Source of the DNA: Chrysomallon squamiferum
Taxonomy: Eukaryota > Animalia > Mollusca
Reading direction: 5' to 3'
Assembly: GCA_012295275.1 (NCBI GenBank)
Contig: CM022667.1
Location: forward strand, 496,001-560,000
DNA: 64,000 nt
Shown here: positions 2,272 through 52,927 of the stretch, in pieces
How positions within the stretch are numbered: position 1 is the stretch's first letter
How the letters are laid out: the number at the start of each line of letters is the position of its first letter
Made by a program: the position numbers and the translations under genes
Notes under the pieces: generated by a model
The model's input: the letters and a program-made list of their open reading frames with translations, nothing else
Database searches by the model: none
Told to the model about the DNA's origin: nothing

Positions 2272-28968
<26,697 letters not shown>

Positions 28969-31900
28969 GAAAACTTGATAATTTCACAGCTGTGAGAAAA
29001 TTTGATAATTTCACAGCTGTGTAATACAGTGTGTTCTTGTACAAGGAACTCTTCTTGTGAGACAGCTGTGAGAAATCTTGATAATTTCACAGATGTGTAA
29101 TACAGTGTGTTCTTGTACAAGGAACTCTTCTTGTGAGACAGCTGTGAGAAATCTTGATATTTTCACAGCTGTGTAAAAGTGTGTTCTTGTACAAGTAATT
29201 CTTCTTGTGAGAAAACTTGATAATTTCACAGCTGTGTAATACAGCCTGTTCTTTATACAAGTAACTCTTCTTGTGAGACACAGCTGTGAGAAATCTTGAT
29301 AATTTCACAGCTGTGTAATACAGCATGTTCTTTATACAAGTAACTCTTCTTGTGAGACACAGCTGTGAGAAATCTTGATAATTTCACAGCTGTGTAATAC
29401 AGCATGTTCTTTACAAGTAACTCTTCTTGTGAGATGAGAAATCTTGATAATTTCACAGCTGTGTAATACAGCCTGTTCTTTATACAAGTAACTCTTCTTG
29501 TGAGACACAGCTGTGAGAAAACTTGATATTTTCACAGCTGTGTAAGTGTGTTCTTGTACAACTTCTTGTGAGACAGCTGTGAAACAACTTGATATTTTCA
29601 CAGCTGAGTAATACAGCATGTTCTTGTACAAGTAACTCTTCTTGTGAGACGCAGCTGTGAGAAATCTTGATATTTTCGCAGATGTGTAATACAGCATGTT
29701 CTTGTACAAGTAACTCTTCTTGTGAAACACAGCTGTGAGAAAACTTGATAATTTCACAGCTGGATAACAGCACGTTCTTGTACAAGTAATGTCTTGAGTT
29801 GTATATTTTTCAAGCATCAAATAATAATAATAATAATAATAGTATCACACATACACACAAATAATATATATATATTATTACACTCTTCTAACACTGGAAC
29901 TAGTCAGAAACATAAATACTGTACAGATAAATATTTAATATTTTAACTAACTTTGACTTTCTTTTGGTTGAAAACAGTCATGAAATATTCAAATACAAAT
30001 ACAAATAGAGATAATAACAATAAATAAATCAAAATATATATAAAATGTTTTTAAATAATTTTATATAATAATAATAATAATAATAATAAATAACAAATAC
30101 AAAAAGAAATAAATGAAAAAAGGAATAAGCATTAGGTGTAATAGGTACTGAGTCAGTACCACAGTACAGCCTTCTACATATATCTGTCAGATTCACACAC
30201 ACAGACAGACAGACAGACACACACACACCTTCTAACACACTAACAATGTATGAGACCAAAAGTCTCTCTTCAAAACAACTTTCTAATGAACTGACACTGA
30301 ATTGAACCGACAAAAATGATTCCTTGATTCTCTGTCTGACTTGAATATTCATAATCTTTGACTGTAAGACAAATATGAAATAAGACAATGTATGTATGTA
30401 TACTGTGACTCATGAAAGAAAAGAAATAATTAAAATAAAATGTTTGAAATCATTAGTTGTTTTCTTTTTATTTTCTTTCATTTTTTTTTTTTTAATGTTT
30501 AACTGTAAGACAATTCTTTGTTTTTCAGTTATCATTTTCTTGTTTAGGATGACACACTACTGCTCTTAACACAGTTTGACAGTAAAATTATATGGTTACA
30601 AAAACAAATGAATGCAACAATTTCACCAAACTGGAGTTGTGACATATCTGTGTACTGTGTGGATTGAAAGGTGTGGCATTTATTTTTGTTTATTTATTTA
30701 TTTTTGACATCTCTTGAAGAAAATTTGGACTAAATTGATCTGTGAAGTATATGATGACATCACCTTTGCATAAAATGGCAGCATCCAGATATTTTAAAAT
30801 TGTGATCTTTTTGTTTCATACTTTATTATTAATTAAGACTGGATAATAAAAACTAACTAAATAAAATAAAACAACAAATCAATAATACATATATATAATA
30901 AATAATATAATTAAATATTTTTTTTTTAAATCTTAACTTTTAAGTATGAAAAATATATTTACCATTTATTCTCAAAACTAAAAAAGGAACAATATAGGCT
31001 AAAGCTAATGGTAAAAAAAAAAAAAAAGATTTTAATTTCTAACCTGAGAAGGACTGAACTTATATCCTGTTGCATTTCCAAAGCTATACTGCTCTTACTA
31101 TTAATTAAGCTTCTGGACATTGCCAGTGTTGATTTTCAAAAGTCATCATCATAAAACAAACAAGAAAAACAGCCTAAAATTGATAAAACAGTTTATCACG
31201 TAAAGAACAGTTTGAAAGCAATAACAGCATGTGGTAGATTATGAGTTAAAATACATACAAGAAGGTGAATGGGGCAGGAGGAAGGATTTTTTTTTTTTTT
31301 TTCTATTTTTTTTATTTTTTTTTTTTTTTTTTGGTAAAAATACCTTCCAAATAAACATTATTACTTGTACTAAAATACTGGTAAACAAAAGATAATTTCC
31401 TCATCACAAAATACTGATGATAATGTCATACAAATATATACATATATAAATCATATATAAAACATTAAAATCCATTGCTCAGGTATCTGTTACTAGCATG
31501 TATTACACATGCTACTAATAATAATATATTTATTGAAATACATTCTTTGTAATTTAGCTCTAGATGACAATTCATTTTTTTTTTTTTTAATTCTGTAAAC
31601 CACTGTAAAATGTCATGAATATCAAATATATTTTTAAAAAATCCATAATTAATTTACATGAAATATACACAATTTAAAAAAGAAGCATTGAAAAGAATAA
31701 TTTTTTTTTTTTTTTAAAACAAATCAACTATTAAGTGAAATTCAATTAACCAAACGAATATTAATTTTTAACTTCAATGTACAAAGAACATTTACAAAAA
31801 ATTCACATTAAACAAAACTTCACTAATAAAATGTAGCCTACACATGCATCTTTGATGTAATTTTCAATTGTTATTCATGTAACAGATTTTTAAAATTCAA

Positions 31901-36828: not shown

Positions 36829-36986
36829 TCAGTTGTTTGACTGGCGGCGGTAGACAATCTGTTGTCTAGGGACATTTCTGAAGTAAAAAGCAAATAATAA
36901 CAAAATAATAGCTGAACAAACAGATTTTGTAAACAGTACTTACAAGAAATCCTCAAGTTGGGTTCAAATGATATTTGTTAACATGA

Positions 36987-43693: not shown

Positions 43694-45524
43694 ATAATAA
43701 ATAATTTATACAGGTAAAAATAAAAAACATTTAAAAAACAAAACAAATGAAACATAAATGTATAAATTGTGCAAAGAACAGTGAAACTAAAATTAAAAAC
43801 AAACAAAAAAAAAAAAAATAAATACAGTGATTTAAAGGTGATACTTGATATGGGAAAAAGATATACTGAAAATGATAAAAAAAAACAGATAACAATGAAA
43901 TTATAATAATAATAATAATAATGAATAAAATACACACACATATTTTAAAAGATTATGTATTTATTTTAATGGTAAAATTAATTCATAATAGTGATATAAA
44001 AATTTCTGAAGAATTTTACTAACAAATTTACTGTATCAAACCTTCATTGACAAGTCACACAGAAAAAAAAAATAAAACATCAAAATGTGTCCTATTAAAA
44101 CAGATGGTTGTTTAACACAGGCCAGATAATACAGATATAGTCATTAATAATAATACAAGTGACTGGAATAGCAGGTCTGCCATCAAGTAATAGTGATTTA
44201 AAAACCTGATGAAGAATTTTTGGAACAAAACTGTAGGTGACATAAAAACAAAGACCACAAAGAGAAGGTGAGTAAAGGTGAGCAGAAGTGAGAAAGATGA
44301 TTAGCTATGCTGATGTGTAATAAATCAAATACTATTGACAATTTGGAATTTTTATAATTTATTAACAAAAATATATGATTCAAAAGATTTCGTATTTAAA
44401 AATTAAAATAAAATAATAAAAAGGATCAATCATTAAGATAAAAATTAAAATAAAATAAATACAAATAACAGTTTAACACAAATCAAAACAAATATCTGTG
44501 CATGTGTACATTTTGGCAATGTATCTATGATGTTCTTTTTTAAAATGTGTATATTAGAAATAGAACAACAATATTTTTTTCTTTTATAGTTCCATCAAAA
44601 ATCTCTTAATAAAAAAAAAAAAAAAAAACACACAAATCAATTGGGATATTTAACTATTGTTATATATGATAAAACTGTTCTAATAACATTAACAGGTTTT
44701 TAAAATTCTCAAATAAATAAAAAAATTAAAAATAAAATAATCCTGCAAAACTCTGATCACAGTATAAACTAAAATTTTACAAAATTTGTTGTTTATAAAA
44801 ACCTACACATACAAATATAAGCAGAAATTTGTGAATAGTGTAAATATGATAAAACAAAAAGCTCTATATATTAATAGTAAATTAATTATGAATAACTATG
44901 AAAAATATGAATAAAATCCAAATATATAAAATAACTTTTGGCTATAATAGCAGTCATTATGGGAGGAGTTTAAGTAGTTTACAAGGTAACATCAATCAGC
45001 ATTAGCAGAACCAATGAAAATGTGTGTTAGCATTGTGGGCGGAGCTAAAGCTCTATAAAAGGAATATTAATAAACCAATGAGAGTGAAGATATTACAGAT
45101 CAGCATAGCTAAAAGTCTATAAATATCCTTTACATACCAGTTTTTCTAAGTCACTCTTAGAAGAGAATTTGGAAATCTGCAAACAAGTGAAGGTAAAAGA
45201 GGCAAGGTGATTTCACATTCCCCATGCAGTGTCAAGAATTAATTAGTTAACATTTTAGGTGCCAAGGCCCCTAAGCTGGATCTAAGTAAAAATACCAAAT
45301 GCACAATAGAAGGGCTTTTAAACAAAACATCTACTGATTAAATAATATATAATATTATTTTAGATACATATAATGTTAAAAATCCATTCAGTTTATAAAT
45401 AAACATATTATGAAATTCTAGTGACATATCTGTTCTATATAAAATACATTTTAATAAAATTCTGTAATTCAATATGTCAATTTTTATATTTTTTAATTTA
45501 TATTTTTTCTTAATTAATTAATTA

Positions 45525-46850: not shown

Positions 46851-49800
46851 TACAACAAAAATAACAACAATAATAATAAAAAATATGCATCTTCCTATAT
46901 TATCAAAATGTGGCTTGATCTTTAAATAGGTCAATGACCACAATAAAAAGAACTGACTTTATGACCCTTGGAACCTTAGGCTACAGCTATAGCAACCAAA
47001 ATGCTGCTTATTTTCCTATTCAAGATGAAAAATTTAAAGGTAGGCATAAAAAAGATAGGAACATGAAAAAATGTCAAATTAAATAAGTAATTTAAATTTT
47101 AACCAACAATCCACAATTTGGAGATTTCATTAAGTCCTGTTTCAAACTGATTTCATCATTTATTAAAAAAAAAAGTAAAAGAAATCATTTTGAATTATCT
47201 GAAATACAACTGCAGCCATTAAAAAAAATAAAGAAAAAAGACTATTAATATTGAAACATTCCAAAAAACAATGACAGCAGACCTGTCTTTGATATTTCAA
47301 CCATCTTTTTTTTTTTTTTTTATTGCATTTCCATTTTACAAAATAAACATTGCACTGAACAGAAACACACTTTTAGTGATAAAAGCAATTTCCCACAAAT
47401 ATGAAGCAAACAGATCTGTGTTTGTTATTCCAGACAGTACTATTTTTCAGTCATCTTACTATTTTAGAAAATACTTAGACAGTTCAGAAGAAATGCCTCT
47501 CTAGTCATAAAAATGTTTTGTAATTGCCTGTTTGACACCCATGTACATCAATGGATCCTTGTTGTAGAGAGCCCAATGGGGTGGATTCGTTAGATAAAAC
47601 ATCTGACGGAGAATCAATTTCCTCAACAAAGTTTGAAGGAAACCAGTGCTGTTTCTTGTTGCCATAGTCACCGCGCCACCTTAAAAAGATAGAAAAAAAA
47701 AATTAACAAAAAAATTTAAATTAAATAATAATAATAAAAAAAAGAAAAAAGCAAGAATGATAAAACAGATACGGATAATTATATTGCCAAAATTTTCCAG
47801 ATTTAAGTTTAGGACAAAAATAATGTGTGAAAAAAAATTGTCATCACAGTGTTATTATTATTATTAATGTTTAAAACGATGGTTAAATGTCACTTTTTAA
47901 CAAATAATAATAACAATTCTTTTAAAATGTTTTCAAATTATGAACAAAGAATGAAAAATGAGACAAAAAATGACTCCCAAGGCTTCTGTTGTGTTTAAAA
48001 CTACTCAAAGAGCTGTTATGAAATCAAACTGATTAAGACTATTATTTTAACATCAACCTCAGATGATGTTTTAATGGGTTTTTTTTTGGGGGGTTTTGTG
48101 TCAAACATTGGATGAAAATCTCAATGATATTTTCTTTCTCTCCTTTTTTTTTCTGTTTGCCAGATGAAGTCATGTGACCACTTACCATCCTCCATCATGC
48201 TTTGTGACGTTTGTGATAATGGCACCCTTGAGGAAAGCCAGTTCATCAGATCGGCTGGGTGCGTATTCATGTAGAGCTTTCACTCGCAGCTGTATCAAAA
48301 TCAAATGTCAGATACATAAATATATTTCACAAGCATATCATATATTTCATACCGTATTATCATATTATATCCTTGTATTTTTTATGTAAAATAATTGGTT
48401 GATCTGAATCATAGATTAAAACATTTTAAAGATCCATTTCTCTGAAAAATATATATATATCTATCTTTTTATTATTATGTTTTATTTATTTTTTTTACAA
48501 TAATAATAAGAAAGAAGATCATCAAAATTAAATTTCTCATTTCAACAGACAAAAAAATCTAATTTTATTTCCATTAGGATTGAAATAAAATTCATTTTTA
48601 CCAATTTAAATTCTTTTACAGATTTATATATAAACAGGCAATATATATAAATTTTAATAGTTATTTATAAGTAAATTAAGTTAAAATAAATGGTTAATTC
48701 TAATCTATTTCTACAGAAAACACAATTACAACACTAAAGTATTCTATGAATTCCAGCCCAAAAAGCTATATACATTTTTGCAAAGATACTTGCTGCTTAT
48801 ATAATAAATGCCACATCTATGTATACCAACCATTTTTTTGGTGAATTTGTAATAACAAACATTGTTTCTTAAGAATTATATATATTTGTAACTTGCCATG
48901 AGATTTTTTTTCCTATTTATTTTTCAGTAATGACATCACTGCTTTGTATACTTCCAAATGATTTTAAATTCTACTAACAACTAAACTTTACTAATAACAA
49001 AGTCAGATAATAATATAACAATTCATTAAATAACTGTACAGGGAAGTAAAACATAAAATCATTAAAATGAGTAAGTAATAGAAAATGTTGGTCTCCATTT
49101 TTTAGAGTGTTATATTGCTATCAAAAGTTCAGTTTTGCAAAGAATGGTTTTCTAGTTATAAATAAAAATCACTTGAAAGTATACAAAAATGCATTATTTT
49201 CCTACATAAGTAAACCTAGGCTTGGTTAATTTGTGTCTGCATAATAAAACAACAACAACAACAAAATGTTTATCAACAAATAACAGAATTTAGATATTTA
49301 AAAAGCCCCCAAAACAACAAAAAAGACAGAAAAAATAAACCTACCATAGTTCAGAAATTGCTGTAATATTGTTATTTTCATTCAAAATTGTAAAAAAAAA
49401 TAGTCTTCTGTTAAGAATTTTTACTCACTGTTAAAAATATTAAAACACACACACACACACCTCAATACTCACCTTAGCTGTATTAATATTTTCATTAACT
49501 TGAAAACAATGACAGAAATATTATACAACCCACCAATTAAAGATATCAAACTGCTTACCAGTACAACAAAAAAATATATATATATTTTGCTCCTGTGAGT
49601 AACTCTTATTTCACTCATATAATCAAAAACAAAAAACTGCCCAAAATTATCACTAATCAACCAACACTTCCCCCAGTTAAAAAAACAAAAAAGAAAAACC
49701 ACTTGTGCTCACGCAAGTAACTCACCCTGGTGACAAAGACATTGGGAAGATGATAAATCCCGGGCTCATAAACCTCACTGTCGTCTGCTTCCTAAAAAAG

Positions 49801-50131
49801 CCATGCACAGTGAAGTGTCCATAGAAAGTAGCCACCGTAACCACGGAAACCACAAATTATGTCAGTGACCAACACAGTTTCAGTAAAGTAATGCTAATGC
49901 AGTCATTTGGCAGTGTACGAGACATGTTGTGTTTCAGCAACATGCAGTTAAAAAAACTAACTAGGCAGACAGAACTGAAAACAGTTAAAAAAAAATTGTG
50001 CTGCATTTTAAGCATTAAGATGTTGTACTACAATCAGGCAGCATGTGAGACCAATAAATGTTATGTAATTAAAATATTTCTGTCTTTCTAGCACTATGCA
50101 GAGCAGTTGTGTTTCAGACCCCACACGCACG

Positions 50132-50163
<32 letters not shown>

Positions 50164-50596
50164 CACACACACACACACACACGTTAATACTAGCAATTAT
50201 ATCCTCATGCTGTTTTGGGGTACTGAGTTCATTTTATAACAAAACAAGAGGTAATTTTATTGTAAACAGTTCTTCTGAGATTTGCACCATTCCATGTAAG
50301 ACAGTTTGAAAATTCATGCAATAGTTCAGTGGTGCAAAGGACTGTTAAGAATTCATGCTGTTTCTGCATATAGTTTATATATTCATGCACCAAAGTCTTG
50401 AGAATATATTACATGTTTTTAAATCTGCATTATTTGTAAACAGTCAACATGCTGCAGTTTGAAGGGTGGACAAATTTTTCATTTAGTATTTCATAAAAGG
50501 ATGTAATATATAGTTTATTTTGAACAAAAAAATTCTGAAATTTAGATTTAATTCATCATGTGCCCACAGATTGGAATAAACATATACTCACCCACC

Positions 50597-50641
<45 letters not shown>

Positions 50642-51614
50642 AAACATTTCGATCCTTAATTTTCATTCAAGAGACAGTAAACATTATGATGATTCAGAAA
50701 CTATTAAGTTTAACTTTTCCTAAACATCATTAATGTGAAAATTGTTATTAATAAAGATTTGAGAAGCCAAATTTCCTGAATGAGAATAAAAACTGTCTTA
50801 TGTTAACAACTGACATATTTTGTGATTTATAAATAGCTGCCTTTTTTCTTTTCTTTTTTGATCATACTAGTTATAACCAATTTACTGTTATATTGAAATA
50901 ATAATAATAATAATAATAATTATTATTATTATTATTATTATAACAAAATGAAAATCAGTTTTCACCTAATAGCATAAAGAGTAGTTAATAACAGAAAATA
51001 TAAAATATTAAAAATTTTAATTCTTAACCAAAAAGGTTGTAAACCCACATTCAAAATTTCATAGAATGAAAAGATGAAACTGAAATTTCTTTAATCATAA
51101 AGTTATTAATGTAAATTTCAAATTACAAAAGATGATTAAAAAAAAAAAAAAAAGAAATAAAGGCAACTATTTTACAACAATTTAACATCCATGCTAAAAC
51201 CAAACTAAAAATAAATAAATGCTAATTGAAAAAAGAGAATAAAAATTAGAAAAAACAGAAATAATAAACTGCCACAACCAAGGTAACAAGCTGCTACTGC
51301 ATCATGACAACATGCCATTCCTAGATGTGTGTTACCTTTGTTGTAAAATCATTAGGGTTAATGTAGAGATCAAGACTACCATATATCCCAGTTTCATCAG
51401 GAGCCTGGAAAGGGAGGTAACTCTAAATGTCATTTAATGCTTCAATATTCAAGAGTTGTCTTTATTATATTTAAATAATAAATACAATAATAATAATAAT
51501 AATAATAATAAGCATATATATGTTTATGTGCGTGTGTTTGTATGTATGTATGTATATATGTAAGCATGTACAATTATTATTTAATAAAATAAAATATAAT
51601 AACAGAAATCTGAG

Positions 51615-51655
<41 letters not shown>

Positions 51656-52927
51656 AATTTAAAGAAAAATATACAAAACAAAAAATAAAAATGTTAAAAA
51701 TAAACAAAATATAAACATTAATAAATCCAAAGGTATTTAATTTGTATTCTAAAAATTACAAAATATTAAAATTTAGTTAATGTTTTCCTGAAATATATAA
51801 TAATTACTTTTACACTATAATGAAGTATATATATGAAATTTACATAAACAAAATCTCTCATTAAAAAGAATCATAAAAAAAAAAAAAAAAAAAAATCAAC
51901 TCAGTTTGATGTTGCCCCATTAAAAAAGAAAACAACCTTAAATTCAAAAAAAGTCTAAAAAAATTTAAAACAAAATTAAATCAATGAAAAAGTAGTGGTG
52001 TTTTTCTACACACATACCATATTGAGTCTTTCCACAACCTGCTGATTGACGGCGTATTTCAACTTCATCTTCTTGTACAGTGGGTTCCTCTCATAGTAAT
52101 TGACAAGCTCCACTAAACTTTCAAACTGTGCATTGCCGATGAGAAACAGTCGACCCTCTTGTTTGATCCTGCAGTGCTTGATTTTACCCTCAGCTCTACA
52201 AAAAAAAAGATATTTCCAACTATCATTTATGTATTACAGATACAACAGCCTAAAAATAATTTGAGCCTAAGATAAAAGCATCAACTATGCTGAAATGTAA
52301 CCAAAAACAGCACAGCATTTTTTATTTATGCAATACTATCTGCCAGAAAACTTGAAATTTCTGTAAACTATAATTCTCAATATATTCAAATGGATTACAA
52401 AATAATGCTGTATCAAGCTTGTTTTAAAGAATTCTTCCTCAACTGTAGAAAACTGATTATGATCACTAAATGCATTTGCAGGCAAGCACACACTAGCAAG
52501 CATGCACTTGCATACCTAACCCAAGTATCATCTGGAATAGAACTGCTCAGACACACAATAAGATAGCTACTGCTGGTTTTATAGGTTTATATATCTTTCT
52601 GCCTAACCTTTGAAACTCAAACCTATAATATACGCACATATATATACATATACATTCATGCACACACACATTAACACAGTCTCATTCACTCACTCACGCA
52701 TGCACACATGATCCACAATGCATGACTAACTCACCTGAAAGAGATGGCATACGAGTACTGGTCTGTTCCACTGTGTCGTACCAGGTAGGCTCCATCATAG
52801 GGAATTCTCTTCAGCATGTCTTCAGCCATCACCCGACTCATTCCTTCATGGTACCACCTTCATTGGAGAAAGAAATATTTTACTTAACTATGTACTGAGT
52901 ACATTAGTAATCTAAAATTTAACATGT

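Follow-up and report, generated by a model that had tools for sequence, protein, structure and literature searches.

The closest described counterpart of the element reported here is the loop between the cSH2 and SH3 domains of PLC-gamma1 and PLC-gamma2, the vertebrate phospholipases that are also the nearest solved structures and that carry the loop tyrosines Tyr775/Tyr783 and Tyr753/Tyr759, respectively. As described in the part of PMC7004563 drawn on here, this loop is dispensable for autoinhibition, receptor kinases need Tyr783 alone, soluble kinases need both Tyr775 and Tyr783, and the way in which the two tyrosines cooperate is an open question. Modelling has indicated that activation is set by the intramolecular affinity of cSH2 for the phosphotyrosine and by the rate of phosphorylation (PMC9097458, in part). 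Two further systems are related at the level of splicing, namely tandem duplicated exon substitution, in which homologous exons are used in a mutually exclusive manner (catalogued in PMC9741552 and PMC8373072, both in part), and the C. elegans gene egl-15, whose mutually exclusive exon 5B is repressed by Rbfox via an upstream UGCAUG (PMC3585155, in part). Here we describe a PLC-gamma gene in a 64,000-nucleotide (nt) window of the genome of the snail Chrysomallon squamiferum (GCA_012295275.1, contig CM022667.1, positions 496,001 to 560,000) in which this loop is encoded twice. We consider it probable that a mollusc-wide tandem duplication of the cSH2-SH3 loop exon gave rise to a combinatorial cassette, which likely supplies several activation loops with different kinase and cSH2 properties and for which we predict a tissue-dependent switch by Rbfox.

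The gene lies on the minus strand and its in-window part, about 33 coding exons, occupies positions 36832 to 62902, the 5' end being past the window edge. This extent was derived from a tblastn search of the window with the X1 protein of Gigantopelta aegis, the closest named relative (cSH2 exon identity 98%), and from the Pfam architecture of that orthologue, in which PH, EF hands, X box, split PH, two SH2, SH3, Y box and C2 follow one another in the order of a PLC-gamma; the exons of the window map along it. Both the domain order and the position of the tyrosine pair are those of vertebrate PLC-gamma1 and PLC-gamma2. However, the vertebrate proteins examined have one loop per gene, whereas the mollusc gene has two exon-encoded loops, and three in some clams.

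The two loop exons are located between the last cSH2 exon (52018 to 52195), which ends in a phase-0 donor, and the first SH3 exon (48186 to 48289), which starts with a phase-0 acceptor. Exon A (51336 to 51404; 69 nt, 23 amino acids) contains a Tyr-x5-Tyr pair, the second tyrosine of which is followed by Ile-Asn-Pro, and exon B (49726 to 49791; 66 nt, 22 amino acids) contains a Tyr-x4-Tyr pair followed by His-Leu-Pro. An intron of 1544 nt (49792 to 51335) separates them. Both are open, bounded by AG and GT and in phase 0-0, so that the coordinates, splice sites, frames and translations of the initial annotation all hold on the minus strand. In an alignment with rodent PLC-gamma1, the tyrosine pair of exon A falls on Tyr775 and Tyr783, exon B aligns to the same loop, and both G. 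aegis RefSeq models carry a linker identical to exon A. The position-by-position likeness of the two peptides noted initially was borne out as well, as their global BLOSUM62 score of 29 was reached in only 24 of 20000 shuffles and they are hence more alike than expected by chance. When the 3728 nt separating the flanking exons were searched with a profile built from 120 homologous linker peptides, exactly two matches appeared, A with 36.7 bits and B with 28.9 bits; as the profile includes close relatives of both, it locates the exons and is not an independent test. Being adjacent, homologous, equal in phase and similar in length, A and B have the properties of tandem duplicated exons. A scan of the three introns, made without a model of weak sites, showed no extra phase-0 exon with consensus splice sites.

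RNA contigs from four runs of one study of the same organism (X1 to X4) were matched at 49700 to 49940, and their loose ends were placed on the window. The junction of B with the SH3 exon was present in all four runs. The junction of cSH2 with B, in which A is skipped, was present in three (X2, X3 and X4), and in X4 a contig of 4012 nt spans cSH2, B and SH3 with long flanks. One run (X3) contained an exact A-to-B junction that extends 30 letters into A and 29 into B, whereas X1 keeps the intron upstream of B. No junction of cSH2 with SH3, i.e. the product of skipping both exons, was found in the contigs covering this region. Exons A and B are therefore real and alternatively spliced, though not strictly mutually exclusive. 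Moreover, the first 31 letters of contig X3-6 are 30 of A and then the initial G of B. Such a start point in a 31-mer graph implies a second path out of A whose first base is not G; the SH3 exon, which begins with C, agrees with this, and the intron, which begins with G, does not. Hence, we infer that A-only transcripts, in which A is joined to SH3, exist in run X3, although this junction was not directly seen.

Both exons are conserved in relatives across the molluscs. We collected these relatives in three protein searches and three cluster look-ups, with the large clusters partly listed (for example, 15 of 85 Mytilus and 15 of 81 Magallana members). Among the 185 mollusc proteins spanning the region, A alone was annotated in 48, B alone in 55, A+B in 75 and neither in 3, and the remaining 4 have a third copy, C; six further mollusc proteins do not contain the region. 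Copy C belongs to venerid or myid clams (Mercenaria, Ruditapes and Mya), where it occurs alone in two proteins, with A in one and with both A and B in one. Both A and B were found in 16 of 27 mollusc groups, including chiton, octopus, decapod cephalopods, oysters, mussels, scallops, clams, abalone and heterobranch snails, and isoforms with A only as well as isoforms with B only are present in chiton, abalone, Biomphalaria, octopus, oysters, mussels and clams. In a cluster of ten cephalopod proteins from Logan assemblies, seven contain B, one contains A and two contain A+B; the contigs of about 2 to 6 kb with full-length frames suggest that these represent mRNA. The three isoforms with neither exon (one abalone, two octopus) are gene models only.

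In a leave-one-out comparison of similarity, A was nearest to other A copies in 11 of 11 species or groups, and B was nearest to other B copies in 11 of 11. This sorting indicates a single duplication that predates the split of chitons from other molluscs, and the initial reading of an old, maintained tandem duplication of the activating phosphotyrosine linker was correct. The chiton split dates to the Cambrian. Both copies are expressed and conserved as separate orthologous classes. Two observations on related models stand apart from this comparison. Heterobranch models of Aplysia, Biomphalaria and Bulinus (P0143, P0039 and P0146) have an extra Lys/Arg-rich segment of 10 to 19 amino acids after B, and a consensus scan of our window found no exon of this type. 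Nucella and Babylonia have two PLC-gamma proteins each (P0009, P0040, P0016 and P0048), which are annotated with the A-type linker only.

The initial annotation regarded A and B as probably mutually exclusive. Its notion of one gene with swapped isoforms holds as far as B-only transcripts here and A-only and B-only isoforms in relatives are concerned, but A+B is made too. We consider it unlikely that the exons are nevertheless strictly exclusive and that the A+B transcripts are splicing noise or annotation artefacts. Such exclusion would agree with the single exon present in all eight chiton models and in nine of ten abalone models (the remaining one has neither), and with runs X2 and X4, where B is joined to cSH2 and no A-to-B record exists. 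On the other hand, A+B was observed both in run X3 and in the Logan cephalopod proteins, and gene models with A+B exist for heterobranch snails, octopus and most bivalves, A+B being the commonest class of the 185 proteins. Since both exons are multiples of three in length, have GT-AG sites and are 1544 nt apart, there is no frameshift, steric block or U2/U12 mismatch that would enforce exclusion. Nor was any convincing docking or selector RNA element found among the 25 longest of 251 inverted repeats, which were AT-rich or of the simple-repeat type.

We then compared 22 modules, 11 of each class, at the loop tyrosines. The second tyrosine and the proline at +3 are present in all 22, whereas the first tyrosine is kept in 6 of 11 A and in 9 of 11 B copies; in oyster, mussel and decapod cephalopods, A is without the first tyrosine and B retains it. 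At +1 after the Tyr783 equivalent, B copies carry His, or Tyr in cephalopods, whereas A copies carry Ile, Met or Val, in most cases followed by Asn at +2. The cSH2 pocket residue Arg675 and the C2 residue Asp1165 of the autoinhibitory interface of rodent PLC-gamma1 have identical counterparts in all four mollusc proteins aligned, which thus combine a Tyr783 equivalent with an intact pocket and the interface residue; for the chiton B isoform the automatic alignment slipped, yet the tyrosine pair is present. By analogy with the vertebrate enzyme (PMC7004563, in part), mollusc PLC-gamma would be activated by phosphorylation of the loop tyrosines. Given that the residues around the conserved tyrosine and proline differ between A and B, as does the retention of the first tyrosine, the choice of exon would alter kinase preference and cSH2 affinity.

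The intron between A and B contains nine sense GCATG motifs (starting at 51315, 51194, 50452, 50388, 50358, 50319, 50210, 49945 and 49806) and one in antisense, while the two flanking introns contain none. Nine copies were reached in 0 of 2000 dinucleotide shuffles, and no more than four occurred in any of 215 overlapping, equally sized windows from the rest of the gene. GCATG is third among the 1024 pentamers of this intron, behind two words of the GT microsatellites, and of the seven other motifs counted none was prominent besides GCATG and TGCATG. One TGCATG (49802 to 49807) is located within the 3' splice-site region of B, with its GCATG at -15, and the same motif is found at -19 before the second linker exon of two metagenome loci, L008 and L016, which are described below. 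Among the 33 approximate exon starts in the window, one other has a GCATG within 60 nt, distant from the acceptor.

GCAUG is the element bound by Rbfox, which in most cases has an enhancing effect on an exon when it sits downstream and a repressing effect when it sits upstream (PMC11874969, in part). The motifs are placed in just this way, downstream of A and upstream of B. Combined with the positional rule, the sites that follow A (at +21 and +142) and the one in the acceptor of B lead to the prediction that A is favoured and B is blocked where Rbfox is active, with the intron as the putative control region and the acceptor motif as the putative repressor site. The GCATG excess and the site at the B acceptor hence suggest a tissue switch. 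In egl-15, similarly, a UGCAUG is located in the intron upstream of the repressed exon, and the tissue-specific choice concerns tyrosine-kinase signalling. However, the control of egl-15 was proven genetically, whereas here it is a motif pattern and the exons are not strictly exclusive. Elsewhere in the gene, we noted an additional 39-nt cassette exon on the minus strand (45138 to 45176) with AG/GT ends, which matches the 13-amino-acid insert distinguishing the G. aegis isoforms X1 and X2 and which has a TGCATG 52 nt upstream. Three more TGCATG are found at 52506 to 52704 on the same strand, near simple repeats in the intron between the two cSH2 exons, where no alternative exon is known.

The exons, the junctions containing B, the conservation of both copies and the motif excess are compatible with the following mechanism. 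The cassette would produce B alone and A+B, as seen here, and also A alone, as seen in relatives. Use of A or B would change the phosphorylation rate and the intramolecular affinity, and A+B would provide two triggers on a longer tether. An enzyme with neither exon would be expected to stay autoinhibited and not to be activatable via the loop. In this it would resemble the engineered PLC-gamma1 delta-25 (PDB 6PBC), which is without the same loop as the neither-exon mollusc models and remains autoinhibited in cells (PMC7004563, in part); delta-25 is an engineered protein, in contrast to the natural skip forms, which are gene models. Rbfox bound in the A-B intron would enhance A from its downstream side and repress B from its upstream side, so that A would be favoured in cells rich in Rbfox, and B or A+B in the remaining cells.

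A functionally neutral duplication, in which the copies are interchangeable, are kept by redundancy and are spliced differently with no effect on signalling, appears quite improbable to us. It would account for the core of tyrosine and proline at +3 common to both copies and for the lineages with only one copy. However, redundancy alone would not be expected to keep the A and B signatures distinct across chiton, cephalopods, bivalves and gastropods, and the intron between them has a strand-specific motif excess. Very unlikely, finally, is that A+B, a doubled loop with four tyrosines, is the main product and the single-exon forms are minor skips, since, although A+B is annotated more often than any other form (75 of 185) and the A-to-B junction in run X3 has a depth of 4.17 against 2.4 for cSH2-to-B (contig depth cannot rank forms), cSH2-to-B occurs in more runs than A-to-B (three against one), 22 of 24 Logan and ENA assembly proteins across five groups have one exon, and neither chiton nor abalone has an A+B model.

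Several points weigh against a conserved, Rbfox-switched cassette. With regard to the motifs, the full hexamer TGCATG is weakly enriched (4 sites, a number reached in 60 of 2000 shuffles), GCATG was spotted by eye before testing and was one of eight motifs counted, the motif is also present at the acceptor of one among 20 linker exons that occur singly in other loci, and the analysis covers one mollusc A-B intron, that of this gene. Furthermore, the repression rule of Rbfox is less clear than its activation rule (PMC11874969, in part). The RNA evidence comes from contigs of a single study that bear no tissue information, their depth is not usable for isoform ranking, and they cover the neighbourhood of exon B; cSH2-to-A and A-to-SH3 junctions were not directly observed in this organism. 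Only in the X4 contig are the junctions flanked by at least 31 letters on either side, a length of which the A-to-B record falls short. Most of the mollusc isoforms are RefSeq predictions and their counts are no measure of abundance. Six groups (Gigantopelta, Patella, Pomacea, neogastropods, Mactra and the Logan gastropods) have A only and five have B only, which may reflect loss or missing annotation.

A more far-reaching version of the cassette reading appears doubtful to us. It would hold that an Rbfox-driven switch which predates the divergence of molluscs and the other lophotrochozoans picks the PLC-gamma loop and thereby the class of activating tyrosine kinase. One-tyrosine loops (A in oysters, mussels and decapod cephalopods) would then answer receptor kinases and two-tyrosine loops (B of the same animals) soluble kinases, with A+B as a double trigger and the skip form deaf to phosphorylation. 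If this were true, splicing would rewire the on-switch itself.

Outside molluscs, a doubled linker module was found in none of 252 proteins; 20 were flagged by a loose pattern, and on reading all of these were single modules or mis-predictions. It was likewise not found among the 56 of 150 matches to 50%-cluster representatives that have both flanks (three pattern flags were single modules), and a search with the Owenia linker region added no new annelid full-length proteins among the 120 matches listed. From metagenomes we analysed the best 80 of 89 loci, 27 of which cover the whole cSH2-SH3 interval. One linker match was found in 20 of these, none in five and two in two, namely L008 and L016. 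Coral-like loci have a single 69-nt linker exon with the same boundaries as A, which indicates that A is the ancestral type and B the derived copy. As this exon equals A in length (23 amino acids), the initial statement that either exon alone gives a linker of normal length is also correct. In contrast, the parallel drawn there with the vertebrate PLCG1/PLCG2 pair amounts to an analogy, as the mean scores of the vertebrate linkers against A/B were 19.0/17.5 and 22.5/23.5, with neither closer.

In L008 and L016, an A-like 69-nt exon precedes another exon in phase 0-0, which is 66 or 84 nt long. These second exons have AG/GT ends, open frames and a common peptide pattern, and their profile scores of 8.0 and 5.4 bits are near the level of spurious matches. 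A connection to mollusc B through peptide similarity was considered and found unsupported: the peptides scored 32/25 and 29/17 against the A/B sets and are not nearer to B. In two trees L008 fell outside the strongly supported mollusc clade, in the first of them loosely among annelids, and a sister-group relation to molluscs was not rejected in an approximately unbiased (AU) test (p 0.104). A shared origin of this doubling and an independent duplication are both possible. As a separate observation, in seven loci that group with a leech protein (L014, L015, L022, L025, L027, L034 and L038) the only linker exon is 66 nt long with Tyr-x4-Tyr spacing, and their complete interval contains no A-like exon; the same spacing is found in Owenia and Paralvinella proteins.

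No paper on a duplication of the mollusc PLC-gamma linker exon was found in the full-text literature; subscription journals and closed preprint supplements lay outside the search, and an earlier mention is possible. PLCG is absent from the text of PMC9741552, as far as its accessible part goes, and from one searched supplementary file, and the passages covered of the review PMC12195575 describe splice variants for other PLC classes and none for this loop. As in tandem exon substitution, neighbouring homologous exons of the same phase and of ancient origin swap a functional segment. The cassette differs from it in that co-inclusion of A and B makes it combinatorial and in that the swapped part is a disordered phospho-switch instead of a segment of a folded domain. 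Tandem exon substitution and phospho-activation of PLC-gamma are each well known, and a conserved, combinatorial exchange of the activation loop at the exon level appears to be a new variation on them. The mollusc isoforms have been in RefSeq already, and we found no paper remarking on them. They form a natural series in one protein background, with two-tyrosine loops, loops that are without the first tyrosine, doubled loops, tripled loops in some clams and loopless forms, which makes the question of Tyr775/Tyr783 cooperation directly testable. Through the choice of loop, one gene likely tunes which kinases activate PLC-gamma in different tissues. This predicts that growth-factor, immune and neural calcium signalling is wired differently from tissue to tissue in molluscs that serve as models or are farmed (Aplysia, octopus, oyster, mussel and Biomphalaria).

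The remainder of the window contains, at about 20900 to 29000 on the plus strand, a gene with a cyclic-nucleotide-binding domain (Pfam match at 24629 to 24748), which probably encodes a channel of the cyclic nucleotide-gated (CNG) type. A 368-amino-acid open frame within it (27862 to 28965) has no Pfam match. The segments at 28986 to 29789 and 16210 to 16649 consist of a 76-nt minisatellite in about 11 copies and a 171-nt repeat with GT runs, respectively.

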